This document shows positions 11,023-45,723 of a stretch of 55,074 bases of DNA, piece by piece. The notes under the pieces are model-generated. The model was given only the letters and a program-made list of their open reading frames with translations, had not been told where the DNA came from and searched no databases. The translations under genes were made by a program, and so were the position numbers. The DNA is from a virus (taxonomy: Duplodnaviria > Heunggongvirae > Uroviricota > Caudoviricetes), in the IMG/VR virus record IMGVR_UViG_2880361019_000008, one strand, 5' to 3'. Within the stretch, counting starts at the first letter, position 1; each line of letters opens with the position of its first letter.

Positions 11023-11210
11023 ATTCATTACGATATGGGAATTCCCATATCGGGTAAAAACGGTTTGCGGTAAAGCGAGAGTTAAGTAGAATTGCTGCGG
11101 GTGCTTGAGGCTGTCTGCCTCGGGCATGACACCGTAAGGCAGACAGAGAAAAGCCCCAGTTAACATTACGCGTCCTGCAAGACGCCTAACATTAATCTGA
11201 GGCCAATTTC

Positions 11211-11423
11211 ATGCTAGACACATGTAGGTTAGCCTCTTACGCGCCGAAAGGCAAGGAGAAGCAGGCTATGAAGCAGCAAAAGGCGATGTTAATCGCCCTG
11301 ATCGTCATCTGTATTACCGTCATAGTGACGGCACTGGTAACGAGGAAAGACCTCTGCGAGGTACGAATCCGAACCGGCCAGACGGAGGTCGTTGTCTTCA
11401 CAGCTTACGAACCTGAGGAGTAA
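11211..11423 (+). CDS. mok: Mok-like overlapping reading frame (in-frame N-terminal extension of hok)
   Basis: 70-aa ORF sharing frame and stop with the hok-like gene, as in chromosomal mok/hok loci. Confidence 0.45.
   Translation: MLDTCRLASYAPKGKEKQAMKQQKAMLIALIVICITVIVTALVTRKDLCEVRIRTGQTEVVVFTAYEPEE
11268..11423 (+). CDS. hok: Hok/Gef-family type I toxin
   Basis: 51-aa MKQQKAMLIALIVICITVIVTALVTRKDLCEVRIRTGQTEVVVFTAYEPEE resembles Hok; SD AGGAG 9 nt upstream. Confidence 0.8.
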   Translation: MKQQKAMLIALIVICITVIVTALVTRKDLCEVRIRTGQTEVVVFTAYEPEE

Positions 11424-13685: not shown

Positions 13686-13715
13686 TTGACCATATACATT
13701 GTCCGGGGCTATATT
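13686..13715 (+). promoter_or_regulatory. Candidate late promoter (PR' analogue): TTGACC-N18-TATATT
   Basis: -35 and -10 hexamers immediately after Q stop. Confidence 0.35.
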
Positions 13716-13777
13716 CCTCGCGCGTCAGCAAAATCTGGCGTCGGGATTGGAACCCCGGATATTCAACCGCGACAGAC

Positions 13778-13801
13778 ACACGCCGCGAGCGTGTTTTTTA
13801 T
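13778..13801 (+). terminator. Intrinsic terminator (tR' analogue)
   Basis: Hairpin ACACGC-CGCGA-GCGTGT followed by TTTTTT. Confidence 0.55.
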
Positions 13802-13963
13802 TGTCGTAAGCACACGCACATCTGAATAATGGTGGGGCGTATGGGGGAGCTGAAAGGCTCGCCGGTTGGTTGATCCGGTAGTTCCAACCCTGTACGTCTC
13901 ACCACCCAATGATTGGAACCTGACGGTGGTGATAGTTAAATCCATCAACCAGAGGGCGTTATC

Positions 13964-16129: not shown

Positions 16130-16330
16130 TTTTTTTATTTGCTGTTTATTAAAAACACCACTGCATGGTGAATCCCCCTGTGCGGTGGGGCAATCAGCAA
16201 GAAGGAATATGGGGTAACCGCGGATTCAGGTGCTGATACTGAATTCACCGGGAGGCACCCGGCACCATGCTTTGCCACAAAAGTGTTATTTCTGTTTTTC
16301 TCAAACTATCATCGTTATCCCTTTATTTTC

Positions 16331-35670: not shown

Positions 35671-35988
35671 ATGACACAGACTGAATCAGCGATTCTGGCG
35701 CATGCCCGGCGGTGTGCGCCTGCGGAGTCTTGCGGCTTCGTGATAAGCACGCCGGAGGGTGACCGAACGAAGGCTGGTACCAGATACGTATTGCTGGTGA
35801 GGACACGGCACCGGAGGCGGTGTATGCCCGCCTTCACGAACAACTGGGTGAGGGAACGGTCATCCATATTGTGCCGCGACTGGCCGGTGCAGGGAAAGGC
35901 GGACTGCAGATTGTGCTGGGGGCGGCAGCCATCGTGGGCTCTTTCTTCACGGCCGGAGCATCGATGGCAGCCTGGGGTGCAGCGCTGA
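35671..35988 (+). pseudogene. K: Tail assembly protein K remnant: first about 30 codons of K fused out of frame to gene I sequence
   Basis: MTQTESAILAHARRCAPAESCGFVISTPEG matches remembered lambda K N-terminus, then an Arg-rich out-of-frame tail. Confidence 0.65.
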
Positions 35989-36281
35989 GTGCCGGCGGTT
36001 TTTCTGCCACCACGATGCTGTTTTCACTGGGTGCCAGCATGATACTGGGTGGTGTGGCACAGATGCTGGCCCCGAAGCCAAAAACACCGGAATACAGGGC
36101 AACGGATAACGGTAAACAGAACACGTACTTTTCGTCGCTGGATAACATGATTGCCCAGGGGAACCCGATGCCGGTGCCTTACGGTGAAATGCTGGTTGGC
36201 TCCCGGCGAATCTCCCAGGACATCAGCACCCGTGATGAAGGCGGGGGCGGAAAGGTCGTGGTTATCGGGCGGCAGGGGTAA
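35763..36281 (+). pseudogene. I: Tail assembly protein I, 5'-truncated by the K-I deletion
   Basis: Frame reads EGWYQIRIAG...HIVPRLAGAGKGGLQIVLGAAAIVGSFFTAG.., matching the middle and C-terminus of remembered lambda I; frame closed upstream by TGA at 35760. Confidence 0.65.
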
Positions 36282-36296
36282 AAAGAATAAAAAAAT

Positions 36297-36320
36297 CCCG
36301 CAGTGTTGCGGAACTGCGGG
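36297..36320 (-). terminator. Minus-strand intrinsic terminator downstream of sodC
   Basis: Hairpin CCCGCAGT-N8-ACTGCGGG with T-run on minus strand. Confidence 0.5.
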
Positions 36321-36438
36321 AGCGTTACGAAGATTGAGTGTAAGGAATTATTCTTATGTCACGACAAAAACATTAACTCAGAGAGGGAGGATGTGCCGTT
36401 CTTTTCAGGGAGAAAGGATTTATCGTCCTGAGGAATAA

Positions 36439-36462
36439 AGGTAAGGGGCCCGCCCCTTACCT
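36439..36462. terminator. Strong hairpin (possible bidirectional terminator) between I and sodC
   Basis: 10-bp stem AGGTAAGGGG/CCCCTTACCT with 4-nt loop, 7 nt from sodC stop. Confidence 0.45.
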
Positions 36463-36468
36463 GACTGA

Positions 36469-36996
36469 TTATTGAATGATGCCGCAGGCCATTCTCGCAC
36501 CACCACCGCCCAGGGGCTCCGGATGGTCATGATGGTTATCACCGCCAGCATGAAGCATGAGAGAACGCCCTTTAATCTCTTTTAATGAGTTCAGTCTCGG
36601 GGCCAGGACCGGGTAGTTCGCTTTTCCGTCATGCGTCACGAACAGCGCAGGGAGGTCGCCCAGGTGTCCATCCGGAGACCAGGGGCCAAGATGTTTGCCG
36701 GTGTTTTTCGGGTCAAAGTGACCGCCAGCCGATAATGCTGCGACCGGTTTTCCGTCTTTCAGTGCCGGGGCGCAATTTCCTTTTTCGTGCACATGAAAAC
36801 CATGAATGCCTTCAGACAGAGAGTGAAGGGCTGGTGTGAACAGCAGACCGTAGGGGGTCTCCTGAATGGTTATTTTTCCAATGCTGACTTCTTTTCCGTC
36901 AGCACTGACAAGGTTCATTGGGACTTCCTGTTCTGCTGCGTATCCGCATGATGCTGCTGTCAGCATGGCAATGGCAGCAATGATTTTACATTTCAT
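36469..36996 (-). CDS. sodC: Periplasmic Cu/Zn superoxide dismutase (prophage moron)
   Basis: 175-aa frame with signal peptide [21 protein letters not shown] and motifs [21 protein letters not shown]; opposite strand to tail genes. Confidence 0.9.
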
Positions 36997-39662
36997 AAAA
37001 CCCTCATTAATTCCGTTAACAGACTGAGCTTGCTGGTTACAGGGTAACAAACAGCGTTCTGATGATATCGCGCAATAGCTGTGCAATATCCTATCACTGC
37101 GATTAATAATACCAATTGAGAGGAACATTATGGGTAAAGGTGGCGGCAGGGCACACACGCCGGTTGAGGCAAAGGACAATCTTAAGTCCACGCAGCAGAT
37201 GATGAGCGTGATTGATGCCATTGGTGAAGGGCCGATTGAAGGTCCGGTGAAGGGGCTGCAGAGTATCCTGGTGAACAAAACCCCGCTGACGGACACGGAC
37301 GGTAATCCTGTGATACATGGTGTGACCGCGGTCTGGCGCGCCGGGGAGCAGGAGCAGACACCACCTGAAGGCTTTGAGTCCTCCGGGGCGGAAACCGCAC
37401 TGGGCGTGGAAGTGACGAAAGCAAAGCCGGTGACACGCACCATTACGTCCGCGAACATTGACCGCCTGCGGGTCACCTTCGGGGTGCAGTCACTGTTGGA
37501 GACCACCTCAAAGGGCGACCGTAATCCCTCTTCTGTCCGGCTGCTGATTCAGTTGCAGCGTAACGGTAACTGGGTGACGGAAAAGGATGTCACCATTAAC
37601 GGCAAGACCACCTCACAGTACCTGGCGTCGGTGATTCTGGATAATCTGCCTGAGCGGCCCTTTAACATCCGGATGGTCCGGGAGACAGCGGACAGCACCT
37701 CGGACCAGCTGCAGAATAAGACGCTCTGGTCGTCATACACCGAAATCATCGATGTGAAACAGTGCTACCCGAACACGGCGATTGTGGGGCTGCAGGTGGA
37801 TGCGGAGCAGTTTGGCGGTCAGCAGATGACGGTGAACTACCATATCCGAGGTCGCATCATCCAGGTGCCGTCAAACTATGACCCGGAAAAACGCACTTAC
37901 AGCGGCATCTGGGACGGCAGTCTGAAACCGGCATACAGCAACAACCCGGCCTGGTGCCTGTGGGACATGCTGACTCACCCGCGCTATGGCATGGGAAAAC
38001 GTCTGGGGGCGGCGGATGTGGACAAATGGGCGCTGTATGCCATTGCGCAGTACTGCGACCAGACGGTCCCGGATGGTTTCGGGGGCACAGAGCCGCGGAT
38101 GACCTTTAATGCGTACCTGTCACAACAGCGTAAGGCGTGGGACGTTCTCAGTGATTTCTGCTCGGCGATGCGCTGTATGCCGGTATGGAACGGCCAGACG
38201 CTGACGTTCGTTCAGGACCGCCCGTCGGATGTGGTGTGGCCGTACACCAACTGCGATGTGGTGGTGGATGATAACGGCGTGGGGTTTCGCTACAGCTTCA
38301 GCGCCCTGAAGGACCGCCACACGGCGGTGGAGGTGAATTACACCGACCCGCAGAACGGCTGGCAGACCTCCACGGAACTGGTGGAAGACCCGGAAGCCAT
38401 ACTGCGCTACGGGCGCAACCTGCTGAAGATGGATGCGTTCGGTTGCACCAGTCGCGGTCAGGCCCACCGTGCCGGGCTGTGGGTGATAAAGACCGGACTG
38501 CTGGAAACGCAGACGGTGGATTTCACGCTCGGGTCACAGGGGCTGCGTCACACACCCGGTGACATTATTGAAATCTGTGATAACGACTATGCCGGGACCA
38601 TGACCGGCGGACGTATCCTGTCCATCGATGCCGCCAGCCGCACCCTGACACTGGACCGTGAGGTGACCCTGCCGGAGACAGGTGCCACCACGGTGAACCT
38701 GATTAACGGCAGCGGTAAGCCGGTGAGCGTGGCCATCACTGCACACCCCGCGCCGGACCGGATACAGGTCAGCACCCTGCCTGATGGTGTGGAGACATAC
38801 GGTGTATGGGGACTCTCCCTGCCGTCACTGCGTCGTCGCCTGTTCCGCTGTGTCTCCATCCGGGAAAACACGGACGGCACCTTTGCCATCACGGCGGTGC
38901 AGCACGTACCGGAAAAAGAAGCCATCGTGGATAACGGGGCCAGCTTTGAGCCGCAGTCAGGCACCCTGAACAGCGTTATTCCACCGGCAGTGCAGCACCT
39001 GACGGTGGAGGTGAGCGCGGCTGACGGTCAGTATCTGGCACAGGCGAAATGGGACACGCCGCGGGTGGTGAAGGGTGTGCGCTTCAGTCTGCGCCTGACC
39101 AGCGGAAGCGGAGAAGACAGCCGTCTGGTGACCACCGCCATCACTGCGGATACAGAGCATCGTTTCGGTGGTCTGCCGCTCGGGGAATACACCCTGACAG
39201 TCAGGGCAATTAACAGTTATGGCCAGCAGGGCGAACCGGCCACCACCACCTTCCGGATTAACGCGCCAGCAAAACCCGCCACCATTGAACTGACGCCGGG
39301 GTATTTTCAGATAACGGCGGTACCGGTGCTGGCGGTGTATGACCCGACGGTGCAGTTTGAGTTCTGGTTTTCGGAAAAACGCATCACGAACACGGCACAG
39401 GTGGAAAAATCTGCCCGTTATCTGGGGAGCGGCAGTCAGTGGACTGTCCAGGGAAGCCGGATTAAGCCGGGGACGGATTTCTGGTTTTACGTGCGCAGCG
39501 TCAACCTGGTGGGGAAATCTGCGTTTGTGGAAGTCAGCGGGCAGCCCAGCAATGATGGTGAAGGGTATCTGGAATTTTTCCGGAAAAAAATAGGAAAACT
39601 GCATCTGGCTCAGGGGTGTGGGAACTGATAGATAACAGCCAGCTTGCAGATGAGATGGCGGA

Positions 39663-39667
39663 GATGA
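39663..39667. repeat. Target-site duplication GATGA (left copy) of the IS21-family insertion
   Basis: Same pentamer at 44711-44715; removing the IS and one copy restores ...[17 protein letters not shown]... Confidence 0.6.
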
Positions 39668-39860
39668 TGCGTATTTTCATGAAAGGAGATCACTCAATAA
39701 CTTCCATCGAGATCGGGTAATAACATTTGAACAGATCGCTGAATAACATCGATGGAGATCACTTTTGACTCATTTTGTTATTCAGTGATCTCCATCAATG
39801 TTATTGGAACTTCACAGGTGTGTTGATCTGTATCTTTTGCCATTCCGGTAAAGGATACCT

Positions 39861-40716
39861 ATGCCAACAGTTCCAATTTCTATGAGAAAACTTAAAGAAA
39901 TTCTTAGGCTTAAATACGGTGTTGGACTCAGCCATCGACAAATTGGTCGTAGTCTTGCAATCTCCCCTTCCGTTGTATCCAGATATGCTAATCGGGCGGC
40001 TCAACTTGGCATAAAGCAGTGGCCCTTACCTACAGGATGGGATGATACAAAACTAAAACATGCGTTCCTTCAGACCCAGGTTAAGATGAAGAAGCACTCT
40101 CTGCCTGACTGGGCTACAGTACACCGGGAACTGCGTAATAAATGCGTGACGCTGCAGCTACTCTGGGAAGAATACTGTGAGCGTAATCCAGGCGGTTTTT
40201 ACAGCTATAACCATTACTGCCGGATGTACCGTGAATGGCTCAAAACCACTTCACCATCAATGCGTCAGGTACATAAAGCTGGCGAAAAACTTTTCGTTGA
40301 TTACTGTGGACCTACCGTTGGCGTTACCGACCCTGAGACCGGAGAAATAAGAACTGCTCAGGTCATCGTAGCTGTTCTCGGGGCATCAAGTTACACATGG
40401 GCAGAGGCCACCTGGTCTCAGCAGCTTGAAGACTGGGTGATGAGTCATGTTCGCTGCTTCCAGTGGTTGGGTGGCGTTCCTGAACTTGTTGTTCCGGACA
40501 ATCTGAAAAGCGCCACATCCAGGGCATGTAAGTATGATCCTGACGTTAACCCTACCTACCAGCAGATGCTTGAGCATTATAATGTCGCAGTTTTGCCTGC
40601 GCGGCCACGTAAACCGAAAGATAAAGCCAAAGCTGAAGTTGGCGTTCAGGTTGTTGAACGCTGGATCATGGCCCGAATCAGGCATGAGATCTTCTACAGC
40701 CTTGCATCGCTTAATC
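39861..40716 (+). pseudogene. istA: IS21-family transposase IstA, N-terminal fragment (interrupted by IS66-family element)
   Basis: 302-aa ORF with HTH and integrase-core motifs; reading frame continues at 43171. Confidence 0.8.
40709..40716. repeat. Target-site duplication GCTTAATC (left copy) of the IS66-family insertion
   Basis: Identical 8-mer at 43171-43178 flanking GTAAGCG...CGCTTAC ends. Confidence 0.7.
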
Positions 40717-40797
40717 GTAAGCGTCGTCTCAGCACCGTCTGGCAGATCCTGAAATTCCTGAGAGAATAGTGGACACCAAATATGGTGGACGCTATCC

Positions 40798-41202
40798 ATG
40801 AAATCATTAACCGCAGTGCGTAAAAAAAGCCCTAATTATCCCGTTGAGTTCAAAATCAAAATGGTTGAACTCTCGCATCGACCAGAGATCTCCGTAGCGC
40901 AACTCGCTCGTGAGCATGGGATCAACGATAATTTGCTGTTCAAGTGGCGCCAGTACTGGCGCGAAGGAAAACTACGTCCTCCTTCAACAACAGAAAACAA
41001 CGTGCCTGAGCTGCTCCCGATAACACTTGATGCCGAAGATGTTGTCCCTACAACCTCCCCCCGGTCACAACCTGTAGCTGCTGCGACACCTGAATCACTC
41101 AATATCAGCTGTGAAGTGACGTTCCGGCACGGATCACTCCGTCTGAATGGTGCCATCAGCGAAAATATCCTGAACCTGCTGATACGGGAGCTCAAACGTT
41201 GA
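40798..41202 (+). CDS. IS66-family accessory protein (orf1/TnpA)
   Basis: 134-aa ORF, first of three IS66 ORFs. Confidence 0.85.
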   Translation: MKSLTAVRKKSPNYPVEFKIKMVELSHRPEISVAQLAREHGINDNLLFKWRQYWREGKLRPPSTTENNVPELLPITLDAEDVVPTTSPRSQPVAAATPESLNISCEVTFRHGSLRLNGAISENILNLLIRELKR

Positions 41203-41546
41203 TCCCATTACCATCAGGGACAAAGATCTGGCTGGTCGCTGGCATCACCGATATGAGAAACGGCTTCAACGGCCTGGCGGCAAAGGTGCAGACGACGCTG
41301 AAAGACGATCCGATGTCAGGTCACGTTTTTATCTTCCGTGGGCGTAATGGCAGTCAGGTAAAGCTCCTCTGGTCTACCGGCGATGGACTGTGTCTGCTGA
41401 CCAAACGGCTGGAGCGCGGCCGCTTCGCCTGGCCGTCAGCCCGGGATGGCAAAGTGTTCCTCACACCGGCACAGCTGGCGATGCTGCTGGAAGGTATCGA
41501 CTGGCGGCAGCCTAAAAGACTGCTTACGTCCCTGACTATGTTGTAA
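41199..41546 (+). CDS. IS66-family accessory protein (orf2/TnpB)
   Basis: 115-aa ORF overlapping orf1 stop. Confidence 0.85.
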   Translation: MIPLPSGTKIWLVAGITDMRNGFNGLAAKVQTTLKDDPMSGHVFIFRGRNGSQVKLLWSTGDGLCLLTKRLERGRFAWPSARDGKVFLTPAQLAMLLEGIDWRQPKRLLTSLTML

Positions 41547-41594
41547 GCCTCTTTATCCTGGTCGACGCTGAATGAGCCTGGTAATATACCCGGT

Positions 41595-43133
41595 ATGAGC
41601 AGCTCACTTCCTGACGATATCAATGCACTGAAACGTCTCCTTGCCGAACAGGAGGCGCTGAACCGTGCCCTGCAGGAAAAGCTGAACGAGCGTGAACGCG
41701 AAATAGACCATCTGCAGGCACAGCTGGATAAGCTGCGCCGGATGAACTTCGGCAGCCGCTCGGAAAAAGTCTCCCGTCGTATCGCACAGATGGAAGCTGA
41801 CCTGAAGGCACTTCAGAAAGAAAGTGATACCCTTACCGGTCGGGTTGACGACCCGGCCGTGCAGCGCCCGCTGCGTCAAACCCGCACCCGCAAACCGTTC
41901 CCCGAATCACTCCCCCGCGATGAAAAACGGCTGCTGCCGGCAGCGTCATGCTGCCCGGAATGTGGAGGCTCGCTGAGCTATCTGGGTGAGGATGCCGCCG
42001 AACAGCTGGAGCTGATGCGCAGCGCCTTCCGGGTTATCCGGACTGTACGTGAAAAGCATGCCTGTACTCAGTGCGATGCCATCGTGCAGGCCCCCGCGCC
42101 TTCACGGCCCATCGAGCGGGGTATCGCAGGACCGGGGCTGCTGGCCCGCGTGCTGATCTCAAAGTATGCAGAGCACACCCCGCTGTACCGCCAGTCTGAA
42201 ATGTACGGCCGCCAGGGCGTGGAGCTGAGTCGTTCACTGCTGTCGGGCTGGGTGGATGCATGCTGCCGGCTACTGTCACCGCTGGAAGAAGCGCTTCAGG
42301 ACTATGTGCTGACTGACGGTAAGCTCCATGCTGATGACACGCCTGTCCCGGTGCTGTTGCCAGGCAATAAGAAAACGAAGACCGGGCGGTTATGGACCTA
42401 CGTTCGTGACGACCGTAACGCCGGGTCAACGCTGGCGCCGGCGGTGTGGTTCGCTTACAGCCCGGACAGAAAAGGCATCCATCCGCAGACCCATCTTGCG
42501 GGGTTCAGTGGTGTACTGCAGGCGGATGCATACGCCGGGTTCAACGAGCTGTACCGGGATGGCCGGATAACGGAAGCCGCCTGTTGGGCTCACGCCCGCC
42601 GTAAAATCCACGATGTGCACGTTCGCACCCCGTCAGCCCTGACGGAGGAAGCGCTGAAACGGATCGGCGAACTGTACGCCATCGAGGCAGAGATAAGGGG
42701 AATGACGGCGGAGCAGCGCCTTGCCGAACGTCAGTTGAAAACGAAACCGCTGCTGAAATCCCTGGAAAGCTGGCTGCGTGAAAAGATGAAAACCCTGTCG
42801 CGACACTCAGAACTGGCGAAAGCGTTCGCATACGCCCTGAACCAGTGGCCGGCGCTGACGTACTATGCAGATGATGGCTGGGCTGAGGCGGACAATAACA
42901 TCGCTGAAAATGCGTTGCGGATGGTCAGTCTGGGCCGCAAAAACTACCTGTTCTTCGGTTCGGATCATGGAGGAGAGCGGGGAGCGCTGCTGTACAGCCT
43001 GATCGGGACGTGCAAACTGAACGGAGTGGAGCCAGAAAGCTACCTCCGCTATGTCCTTGACGTCATAGCCGACTGGCCGATAAACCGGGTCGGCGAACTG
43101 CTCCCCTGGCGCGTAGCACTGCCGACTGAATAA
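41595..43133 (+). CDS. IS66-family transposase (orf3)
   Basis: 512-aa ORF with N-terminal coiled coil and zinc-ribbon CPECGG. Confidence 0.9.
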
Positions 43134-43170
43134 CACATCCCCGTCAATACGGTTCTTGCTGCACGCTTAC

Positions 43171-43864
43171 GCTTAATCAGCGCATTCGGGAGTTGCTGGA
43201 AAGACTGAATAACAAAATAATGCAGAAGTTGGGTTATTCACGTGCAGAACTCTTCATCCAGCTTGATAAACCCGCACTGAAGCCTCTTCCTGAAGCCAGT
43301 TACAGTTACACCCTGGTGAAGAAAGTCAGAGTTCATGCCGATTACCACGTGGAAATCGACAAACATTACTACTCGGTTCCATGTTCGCTGTTAGGCCAGC
43401 AACTGGAAGCATGGATCTCCGGAGAACTGGTAAGACTCTTCAATCAGGGGCAGGAGGTTGCTGTGCACCCGCGCAAGCGTACTTATGGCTACAGTACCCG
43501 CAACGAGCACATGCCTGAAGCTCATCGACAGCATGCCACCTGGACGCCAGAGCGTCTTCTGGAATGGGCGGGGCACATAGGCAGTGAAACTCATAGTTAT
43601 GTGCTTCATATACTGAACTCTCGTCCACATCCGGAACAAAGCTATCGCTTCTGCCTTGGACTCCTGAACCTTCATAAAAAATACAGTAAAGCCAGACTTA
43701 ATGCAGCATGTGCAAGAGCTCTGAAAACAAAGGTATGGCGTCTGTCAGGTATTAAATCGATCCTGGAAAAAGGTCTGGATAAACAACCTGTTCAGGATCC
43801 AAAACCAGATCTGTTATCCACGATGGAACACGAAAACGTACGCGGCAGTGAGTATTACCACTGA
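43171..43864 (+). pseudogene. istA: IS21-family transposase IstA, C-terminal fragment
   Basis: Frame continuous with N-fragment once the IS66 element and one duplication copy are removed. Confidence 0.75.
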
Positions 43865-43875
43865 TACGGGATCCA

Positions 43876-44625
43876 ATGATGAATCATCTTTACGAACAAC
43901 TGACCGCACTTAAACTCACCGGCTTCCGTGATGCGCTTAAAAAGCAACTTGCTCAGCCGGGCACATACCAGGAGCTGGGCTTCGAAGAACGCCTGTCATT
44001 ACTGACAGCAGAAGAACTAACCTGCCGTGAAAACAGGAAGGCAGAGCGTCTGATCAAACATGCACGGTTCAGACTTAATGCTGAGTTATCAAAGCTGGAT
44101 TATCGTAACAATAGAGGGCTGGACAGGGCCCTCATCCGTTCACTCAGTCAGGGAAACTGGTTAACCCTGAAACAAAATATTTTACTGACCGGGGCCACCG
44201 GCAGCGGTAAAACGTTCCTGGCATGTGCACTTGGTCATAATGCCTGCCGACAGGGATACAAGGTCTACTATTATCGCCTTAAAGCGCTGATGGAACAGTG
44301 CTATCAGGGGCATGCTGATGGAAGATACAGCAAACTTTTGACCAGGCTGAATAATAGCGATCTGCTGCTTCTGGATGACTGGGGGCTGGAACCTCTCTCA
44401 TCAGAACAGCGTAGCGACCTGCTGGAAATAGTGGATCTGATGTACCAACGAGGCTCAATCATCGTAGTGAGCCAGTTGCCGGTGGAAAACTGGTACAAAA
44501 TGATCGGAGACTCCACACATGCGGATGCCATCCTAGATCGACTGGTTCATGGCAGTATCAAGATCGAACTTAAAGGAGAATCAATGCGGAAAATACAATC
44601 TCCGTTGACCGAAGGAGATCAGTGA
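43876..44625 (+). CDS. istB: IS21-family ATP-binding helper protein IstB
   Basis: 249-aa ORF with Walker A GATGSGKT and Walker B LLLLDDWG. Confidence 0.9.
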   Translation: MMNHLYEQLTALKLTGFRDALKKQLAQPGTYQELGFEERLSLLTAEELTCRENRKAERLIKHARFRLNAELSKLDYRNNRGLDRALIRSLSQGNWLTLKQNILLTGATGSGKTFLACALGHNACRQGYKVYYYRLKALMEQCYQGHADGRYSKLLTRLNNSDLLLLDDWGLEPLSSEQRSDLLEIVDLMYQRGSIIVVSQLPVENWYKMIGDSTHADAILDRLVHGSIKIELKGESMRKIQSPLTEGDQ

Positions 44626-44710
44626 AGGTAATTTAAAAACGGTTCTGTGAAAGTGACACGAACCGATCTCCATCGATGTTACTCACCGATCTCCTTCACG
44701 GTAATACGCA

Positions 44711-44715
44711 GATGA
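44711..44715. repeat. Target-site duplication GATGA (right copy) of the IS21-family insertion
   Basis: See left copy at 39663-39667. Confidence 0.6.
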
Positions 44716-45723
44716 AGACCAGCATCACGGAAACCCGCAATGAAATCACACAGACGGTCAGTAAAACACTGGAGAACCAGAGCGCCACCATACAGCAGAT
44801 ACAGCGCGTGCAGAAGGACACAAATGATGACCTGGCTGCGCTGTACATGCTGAAGGTTCAAAAAACGAAAGACGGCATTCCCTATGTGGCCGGGATTGGT
44901 GCAGGGATTGAGGATACTGATGGTCAGCCACTGAGCAACATACTGCTGCTGGCTGACCGTATCGCGATGATAAATCCGGAGAGCAGCAACAGCACGCCGT
45001 TATTTGTGGCGCAGGGGAATCAGCTGTTCATGAACGACGTGTTCCTGAAACGACTGTTTGCGGTGAGCATCACGTCATCCGGCAATCCTCCGGCATTTTC
45101 CCTGACGCCGGACGGGCGACTGACGGCGAAAAATGCGGATATCAGTGGCAGTGTGAATGCGAACTCAGGGACGCTCAACAACGTCACGATTAATGAGAAC
45201 TGTCAGATTAAGGGGAAACTGTCAGCCAACCAGATTGAAGGCGATATAGTCAAAACAGTGGGTAAGGCTTTTCCGCGGGACTCCCGGGCACCGGAGCGGT
45301 GGCCATCAGGGACCATTACCGTCAGGGTTTATGACGATCAGCCGTTTGACCGGCAGATTGTTATTCCGGCGGTGGCATTCAGTGGCGCTAAGCATGAGAG
45401 AGAGAGCATACTGATATTTACTCCTCATGCCGTCTGATAGTGCGGAAAAACGGTGCTGAAATTTATAACCGTACCGCGCTGGATAATACGCTGATTTACA
45501 GTGGCGTTATTGATATGCCTGCCGGTTCACGGTCACATGACGCTGGAGTTTTCGGTATCAGCATGGCTGGTGAATAACTGGTATCCCACAGCAAGTATCA
45601 GCGATTTGCTGGTTGTGGTGATGAAGAAAGCCACCGCAGGCATCAGTATCAGCTGAATTTTATAACCCATATACGGGCGCCAGAAATGGCGCCTTTTTTA
45701 TTGCAGAAAAGCGAGAGGTAATT

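Follow-up and report, generated by a model that had tools for sequence, protein, structure and literature searches.

A sodC-F1 cassette in the tail operon of a lambdoid prophage and the promoter-less small RNA module of the PasB type that adjoins it

In a stretch of 55,074 nucleotides of prophage DNA (called the window here; IMG/VR virus record IMGVR_UViG_2880361019_000008, Caudoviricetes), a gene for a periplasmic Cu,Zn superoxide dismutase, sodC, is inserted on the opposite strand between the tail genes I and J, and is followed on its own strand by two strong intrinsic terminators, T1 and T2. This locus raises the question as to where the sodC unit ends, that is, whether both terminators came with the gene, as the initial annotation proposed, and whether the prophage is kept for the sake of this cargo. 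The reading best in keeping with the data, which we hold to be very probable as a whole, is that the gene belongs to the known sodC-F1 moron cassette, that T1 is the terminator of this cassette, and that T2 comes from a small RNA (sRNA) gene of the PasB/EcOnc22-24 family. The features on which the argument is based are the following, with their positions in the window:

36385..37129, no strand assigned: sodC cassette of 745 bp, a presence/absence unit between related prophages, delimited by its breakpoints with sodC-less relatives.
36997..37129, minus strand: 5' region of sodC (39.8% GC), with a weak candidate promoter inside.
36469..36996, minus strand: sodC, sodC-F1 allele, with an ATG start, encoding, as a 175-aa precursor, a periplasmic Cu,Zn superoxide dismutase which is in part lipid-anchored, as identified from Pfam Sod_Cu, homologues in the PDB, and Leu112.
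36937..36996, minus strand: signal peptide, residues 1-20, with the lipobox AASC at residues 14-17, read from the sequence.
36431..36462, minus strand: T1, sodC's own intrinsic terminator, inside the cassette, with a 10-bp GC-rich stem (36462-36439) and the tail UUUAUUCC.
36286..36384, minus strand: promoter-less sRNA module attributed to the PasB/EcOnc22-24 family, shared with sodC-less prophages, with its body at about 36322-36378, the T2 stem at 36321-36296, and the U7 tail at 36295-36286.

The sodC product matches the Pfam family Sod_Cu (PF00080) over profile positions 3-133 of 133 (E=3.9e-32; 111.9 bits, the cut-off being 28.9), as well as solved bacterial SodC structures in the PDB (E about 1e-62). 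When aligned to these structures, it shows all the ligands of copper (H68, H70, H93, and H149) and zinc (H93, H102, H111, and D114), and the C75-C171 disulfide and the catalytic R168 are also conserved. Two alternative cleavages are offered by the signal peptide, either by signal peptidase I after A20 or by signal peptidase II before C17; the dual processing of the SodC-F1 signal peptide, consisting of export together with partial lipidation via the AASC lipobox, has been shown experimentally (PMC2569942). The open reading frame, the Sod_Cu match, the ligands, and the signal peptide confirm what had first been said about the gene, namely that it encodes a periplasmic Cu/Zn superoxide dismutase on the strand opposite to I and J and between them. 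The gene is annotated as sodC in the E. coli relatives. Codon 112 is CTG (Leu), with a T at nucleotide 335, which identifies the allele as sodC-F1 and not sodC-F2 according to the published definition (PMC2569942). This gene is the already known prophage-borne sodC-F1, which has been characterized genetically and biochemically since 2008 (PMC2569942), and the present prophage teaches nothing new about the biology of the sodC moron.

[quoted passage not shown] By virtue of family membership, the sodC gene studied here would need no RpoS for its expression from the lysogen, which would take place in log phase and under anaerobic conditions, and its product would be exported by the signal peptide and in part lipid-anchored, the stable dimer removing periplasmic superoxide and raising peroxide resistance.

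The similarity with the sodC-F1/F2 genes of the O157:H7 lambdoid prophages (PMC2569942; ECs_1989 in Sakai Sp10) extends beyond the protein, since many O157:H7 genomes carry the 745-bp cassette without any difference, and Leu112, the position and orientation between I and J, and the lipobox signal peptide are all those of O157:H7 sodC-F1. In Sakai Sp10, however, the I-sodC-J arrangement is surrounded by intact tail genes, whereas K, I, and J are destroyed in the window, and the backbone here is another mosaic than in the O157:H7 sodC-F prophages, with an nleL-espN-espK locus as in the O26 prophages at ssrA. The Stx1 prophage Sp15 of Sakai (locus L004), which we take to be the counterpart of CP-933V, has no sodC in its I-J slot; Sp10 has one. 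As sodC-F1/F2 were placed in CP-933R and CP-933V (PMC2569942), the mismatch at CP-933V may be due to differences in prophage naming between strains, or PMC2569942 may be imprecise on this point.

The breakpoints of the cassette were defined by alignment to the Stx2c phage JNE090279 and to the O26 RM8426 prophage at ssrA, both of which are sodC-less. I and J are about 240 bp apart in the sodC-less relatives, and this spacer is not empty but contains an sRNA gene. The collinear order L, K, I, sodC (on the opposite strand), J occurs in intact relatives, namely in E. coli SMN197SH3, in the Stx2a phage EH2201, and in Sakai Sp10. The right edge of the cassette abuts the ATG of J, so that the ribosome-binding site of J is supplied by the cassette (on the plus strand of 36997..37129). 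The GC content of the cassette is 50.5%, as compared with 57-60% in the flanking tail genes, and that at third codon positions (GC3) is 0.51 as compared with 0.72. Extra DNA between genes that are adjacent in relatives, a terminator of its own (T1), and a deviant base composition, which are among the features of a moron in the Juhala/Hendrix sense, were found. The unit fits the description of a moron cassette in the I-J slot of a lambdoid prophage of the type found in enterohemorrhagic E. coli (EHEC), transcribed against the tail operon; the moron arrangement which the initial annotation had recognized is thus borne out by the absence of the cassette from collinear phages, its lower GC content, its opposite strand, T1, and the published expression of sodC-F1/F2.

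The cassette is present in 547 of the 5,426 complete E. coli genomes searched, with up to five copies each, and the best copy is at least 99% identical in 542 of 549 records. An evenly spaced sample of the matches consisted mostly of copies without any difference, including those of O157:H7, O145, and O111:H8 strains; the sodC sequence itself was found without a single difference in at least 29 other genomes, and the cassette was also found in two Stx2a-converting phages. Its carriers among E. coli are of the EHEC type as well as of other kinds.

Just upstream of J, sodC-less prophages of E. coli and the Salmonella phage Fels-1 carry a strong intrinsic terminator in the sense of the tail genes (locus L005, 14214-14237, plus strand; L004, 2042-2065, minus strand; L007, 3374-3393, minus strand), which only Q-antiterminated transcription should pass. 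The sodC cassette of the present prophage does not contain such a terminator.

Cargo of this kind has been met with in Salmonella phages. The sodCIII gene of Fels-1 (STM0924), the product of which shows 60.5% amino-acid identity, is found in the same slot, between I and J and on the opposite strand, but it lies only 53 nucleotides from I and is accompanied neither by a PasB-like module nor by a T1/T2 pair, and its DNA sequence is unrelated. The sodCI gene of Gifsy-2 (STM1044; 58.8% amino-acid identity) is likewise prophage-borne and on the opposite strand of a tail operon, and encodes a virulence-associated dimeric SodC, but its slot is between a lom-like gene and L and not between I and J. 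Gifsy-2 sodCI is regulated by PhoPQ; when a PhoP box was looked for by analogy upstream of the present sodC gene, nothing convincing was found. The chromosomal SodC of E. coli (PDB 1ESO) has the same fold and ligands, whereas the mature protein shows about 61% identity and is monomeric, and its gene is RpoS-dependent and not phage-borne (PMC2569942).

Both the minus-strand terminators which the initial annotation had described downstream of sodC were found, with the structure and the positions given there. T1 starts six nucleotides past the sodC stop codon (dG, the folding free energy, -17.4 kcal/mol; z -3.4) and is absent from the sodC-less relatives. T2 has a 9-bp stem on the minus strand (dG -16.1, z -3.9) and a U7 tail, starts 141 nucleotides beyond the start of T1, and ends 4 nucleotides from the stop codon of gene I. 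The scan yielded 9 terminator-like sites, 2.1 being expected from shuffled sequences. One may then suppose that a single sodC transcription unit ends in T1 and T2 as a double terminator in tandem and that both arrived with sodC, as had been proposed, since the two are strong and lie close together on the sodC strand and no promoter could be detected between them by scanning. The comparison with sodC-less prophages makes this highly improbable. T2 and about 85 nucleotides upstream of it are present there at roughly 95% identity, the homology starting abruptly at 36384/36385; the T2 module of these prophages has a promoter of its own and corresponds to a Northern-validated sRNA; the module was counted in 1,369 genomes, i.e., 2.5 times as many as the sodC cassette; and no residual sodC sequence was seen beside the module in sodC-less prophages. 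The claim that sodC carries its own terminators therefore holds for T1, which lies inside the cassette, and not for T2, which with the sequence upstream of it lies outside.

No Rfam family reached its gathering score in positions 36100-37300, and the T2 module is not in Rfam. A match to STnc400 at 36429-36505 on the minus strand, covering the 3' end of sodC and T1, was rejected as probably due to chance, being below threshold (23 bits vs. 80; E=0.09); STnc400 was not found at the gathering threshold in the Gifsy-2, Fels-1, Sp15, or Stx2a-phage loci.

The sequence shows that T2 is not part of the moron; it is the terminator of an Hfq-dependent sRNA gene of the PasB/EcOnc22-24 family found in the I-J slot of many prophages. 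Homology to the sodC-less prophages is regained at 36384 and continues through T2 as far as gene I, and the body of the module is identical to the O26 type except for a single T within a run of Ts. The module contains the terminator of the family, CCCGCAG..CUGCGGGA with U7 after it, as well as UCCUUaCA..AAUCUUC, the motif conserved in the body, and T2 is identical to the PasB terminator at 30 of 33 positions. The module also has the position of the family, lying antisense to the tail genes between I and J and ending beside the stop codon of I.

PasB of E2348/69, an enteropathogenic strain of E. coli (EPEC), is an 83-nucleotide, Hfq-dependent, Northern-validated RNA encoded between E2348C_1436 and E2348C_1437 (PMC8550237 Table S6). 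In that genome we placed it between the tail genes I and J, directly following I, and the probe used for its Northern blot matches the T2 hairpin. EcOnc22, EcOnc23, and EcOnc24 of EHEC Sakai were listed as one homologous set (PMC4104026 Table S2), and EcOnc22 gave a band of about 85 nucleotides which was destabilized in a delta-hfq mutant (PMC4104026). These three RNAs map between I and J, in the spacers of Sp15, Sp14, and Sp11, and are encoded antisense to the tail genes. The coordinates in Table S2 of PMC4104026 refer to NC_002695.1, those of NC_002695.2 being roughly 125-145 higher; the offset was taken as +128 on the basis of three anchors, namely AsxR (282 bp 3' of stx2B), AgvB1 (the CACAACA motif), and StxS (which ends at tR'). 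After this correction, the EcOnc22 peak covers the body of the module and the 5' half of T2 (L004, 2143-2203), which fits an RNA of about 85 nucleotides. With uncorrected Sakai coordinates AgvB1 falls inside a coding sequence and EcOnc22-24 fall at the wrong end of the I-J spacer; a location of EcOnc22 near the start of J, as given by this mapping, was rejected, the three anchors showing the offset between the two genome versions. A relationship of the T2 module with the anti-sRNAs AgvB and AsxR was also rejected; these lie at the moron site of PR' and differ in their terminator, and they were used only as coordinate anchors.

The module present here thus resembles PasB (EPEC E2348/69, PMC8550237) and EcOnc22/23/24 (EHEC Sakai, PMC4104026) in its antisense position after the stop codon of I, its terminator, and its body motif, and differs from them in that it lacks the TTCACA-N16/17-TATAAT promoter and that the 5' part of its body has diverged from that of E2348/69 PasB. 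In the sodC-less O26 prophage, the module has the promoter TTCACA-16-AATAAT (a 10/12 match), and in strain YDC107 it has a promoter with a perfect TATAAT. The homology with the sodC-less module begins 1 nucleotide past its -10 hexamer, and the cassette sequence CACATCCTCCC stands at the -10 position in the window, where a scan of 36385-36470 detected no promoter for this copy, nor the TTCACA-N16/17-(T/A)ATAAT arrangement of the family. The fact that the left edge of the cassette lies 1 nucleotide after the -10 position of the sRNA gene indicates that what the cassette replaced was exactly the promoter of this PasB-family gene.

In the I-J spacer of many lambdoid prophages we noted an unannotated PasB-type gene composed of a TTCACA-N16/17-TATAAT promoter, a body of about 65 nucleotides, a CCCGCAG..CUGCGGG hairpin, and U7. 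The PasB/EcOnc22-24-type spacer genes of three relatives are located as follows:

L005, 14043-14176: spacer gene of this type.
L013, 900-1040: spacer gene of this type.
L016, 662-771: spacer gene of this type.

The I-J spacer of E. coli CB6837 (L014, 901-1823) consists of 923 unannotated bp with four tandem PasB-like units and amounts to an sRNA array in the tail operon. Each unit has a TTCACA -35-like element, a variable body of about 65 nucleotides, and the conserved hairpin with a U-run, a -10 element being recognizable in three of the four; one unit shows a compensatory change from G-C to A-U in the stem. The anatomy of the I-J slot can be corrected in consequence: it is a recurrent cargo site, occupied by one to four PasB-type sRNA genes or by a sodC cassette which displaces the promoter of the sRNA gene.

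Several points weigh against the assignment of sodC, T1, and T2 proposed above. The promoter search in 36997-37129 which the initial annotation had called for gave a mixed result: a stringent scan found no sigma-70 promoter upstream of sodC, while a relaxed scan gave one weak candidate, consisting of TTGGTA (37115-37110), a spacing of 16 nucleotides, and an extended -10 element TGnTAGGAT (-10 at 37093-37088), with 8/12 matches. The published 299-bp promoter fragment would extend 166 bp into J, so that the promoter is not localized by it. Functional expression of sodC from this particular defective prophage is deduced from its likeness to the SodC-F1/F2 lysogens. As to the module, the mapping of EcOnc22 depends on a genome-version offset which was deduced and not read from the record. 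In addition, outside the terminator the module and E2348/69 PasB share only about 70% identity, and for this reason the label "PasB family" is based on position, architecture, and intermediate variants. Lastly, the roles of T2 as a backstop and of the module as a 3' untranslated region (3'UTR), which are discussed below, depend on the efficiency of T1 and are putative.

If sodC, T1, and T2 have the origins proposed here, sodC transcription would end mainly at T1, and T2 would now serve only as a backstop, keeping transcripts that read through T1 from running antisense into I-K-L. The sRNA body would then be either silent or made only as part of an extended 3'UTR of sodC. A bolder version of the latter holds that the T2 module is still a functional source of sRNA in sodC-carrying prophages, read-through at T1 and processing by RNase E yielding a PasB-like RNA coupled to sodC transcription. 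The module is as well conserved in the copies with sodC as in those without it, its body, as mentioned above, being practically of the O26 type; the U-tract of T1, UUUAUUCC, is imperfect; and the U7 tail of T2 is typical of Hfq-binding sRNAs. However, this conservation could just reflect a recent spread of the cassette, copies without differences being found across many genomes, and the orphan Hfq peaks listed by Tree et al. (PMC4104026) include none at the modules linked to sodC in Sakai Sp10 and Sp4, which is a weak argument because their filter excluded peaks near coding regions on the same strand. We regard this version as rather doubtful.

What can be put forward, tentatively and with about the same reserve, is that the cassette landed on the promoter of a PasB-family gene, that about 10% of the sequenced E. 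coli genomes carry the sRNA body and terminator behind T1, and that, if T1 is leaky, the PasB-like RNA might be an sRNA derived from the 3'UTR of sodC. If this were true, the expression of the sRNA would have been rewired from a constitutive promoter of its own to the regulation of an oxidative-stress moron. Neither a link between sodC-F and PasB nor a cassette beside a promoter-less module of the PasB family is mentioned in the literature cited (PMC2569942, PMC8550237, PMC4104026). The exact juxtaposition of the sodC cassette with such a module is the one point which may be called modestly new. It provides a simple case in which a protein-coding moron captures or silences a neighboring sRNA gene, and it matters for the annotation of prophage sRNAs, since surveys of PasB would count the promoter-less copies beside sodC as genes.

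Whether the prophage is kept for sodC has to be judged from the state of the tail genes around it, which are arranged as follows:

35671..35765, plus strand: remaining stub of 31 codons of the tail gene K (C40 peptidase), which a 711-bp deletion joins out of frame to I.
35766..36281, plus strand: tail assembly gene I, truncated at its 5' end, without its start and codons 1-22.
37130..39667, plus strand: 5' part of the tail tip gene J, with a -1 frameshift near 39616 and a stop at 39628.
39668..44706, plus strand: element of the IS21 family of insertion sequences (IS) in J, with istA split and istB intact, containing a nested IS66-family element (40798-43133) and flanked by the 5-bp repeat GATGA.
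44707..45653, plus strand: 3' part of J, with a +2 frameshift at 45396-45397 in the receptor-binding end.

Through the 711-bp deletion, at 35765, K is left with its first 31 codons and is joined, at codon 32, to codon 23 of I. The insertion in J amounts to 5,039 bp, istA being split by the IS66-family element. As had been stated in the initial annotation, sodC is intact and the tail genes on either side of it are broken, by the K-I deletion, the two frameshifts in J, and the IS insertion in J. Among the 5,426 complete E. coli genomes, none has the K-I junction or the J::IS junction, and the lesions in K, I, and J are private to this copy and presumably recent. The state of these three genes is a private decay of this copy and says nothing specific about sodC.

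The initial annotation took the contrast between sodC and its neighbors as a sign that the prophage is kept for this cargo rather than as a phage. In this hypothesis selection for sodC preserves the defective prophage, the intactness of the gene amid broken tail genes being a signature of domestication. It can draw on the sequence of sodC, which is unchanged from that of the widespread copies, on the contribution of SodC-F to peroxide resistance in O157:H7 (PMC2569942), and on the inactivation of the tail genes at four or more sites. However, random lesions would be expected to spare a target of 528 bp in about 45 kb with a probability of about 0.97 in the case of three lesions and 0.89 in that of ten, and most of the other late genes upstream are likewise intact open reading frames. 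The same prophage also holds other cargo with known virulence roles (nleL, espN, espK, and lom), and the tail lesions, being private to this genome, are presumably recent. Because sodC shows no substitutions relative to the widespread copies, there is no signal in the ratio of nonsynonymous to synonymous changes (dN/dS), and hence none of selection in this lineage. The claim was therefore not upheld, and retention of the prophage by selection for sodC is improbable. More generally, caution is called for in that an intact gene among broken neighbors should not be read as evidence of selection.

The other cargo of the prophage includes a type III effector locus (48183-50531, 51124-54525, and 54682-55074) with nleL, espN, and the start of the espK region, which is 99.9% identical to that of O26:H11-type prophages at ssrA. 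The O26 RM8426 prophage at ssrA matches the right half of the window at 98-99.9%, apart from the sodC cassette; since the O26 prophage is devoid of sodC, the present prophage is a mosaic. The early region is also a mosaic, which is covered at most to 75%. Rfam matches at gathering level were obtained elsewhere in the window for DicF, the sok antitoxin, isrK, the C4 antisense RNA with its a1/b1 targets, and STnc100, in the following regions:

4534-4585, minus strand: Rfam match region.
11099-11273, plus strand: Rfam match region.
13709-13909, plus strand: Rfam match region.
16137-16303, plus strand: Rfam match region.

STnc100 is related to PasD (Zhu et al. 2026).

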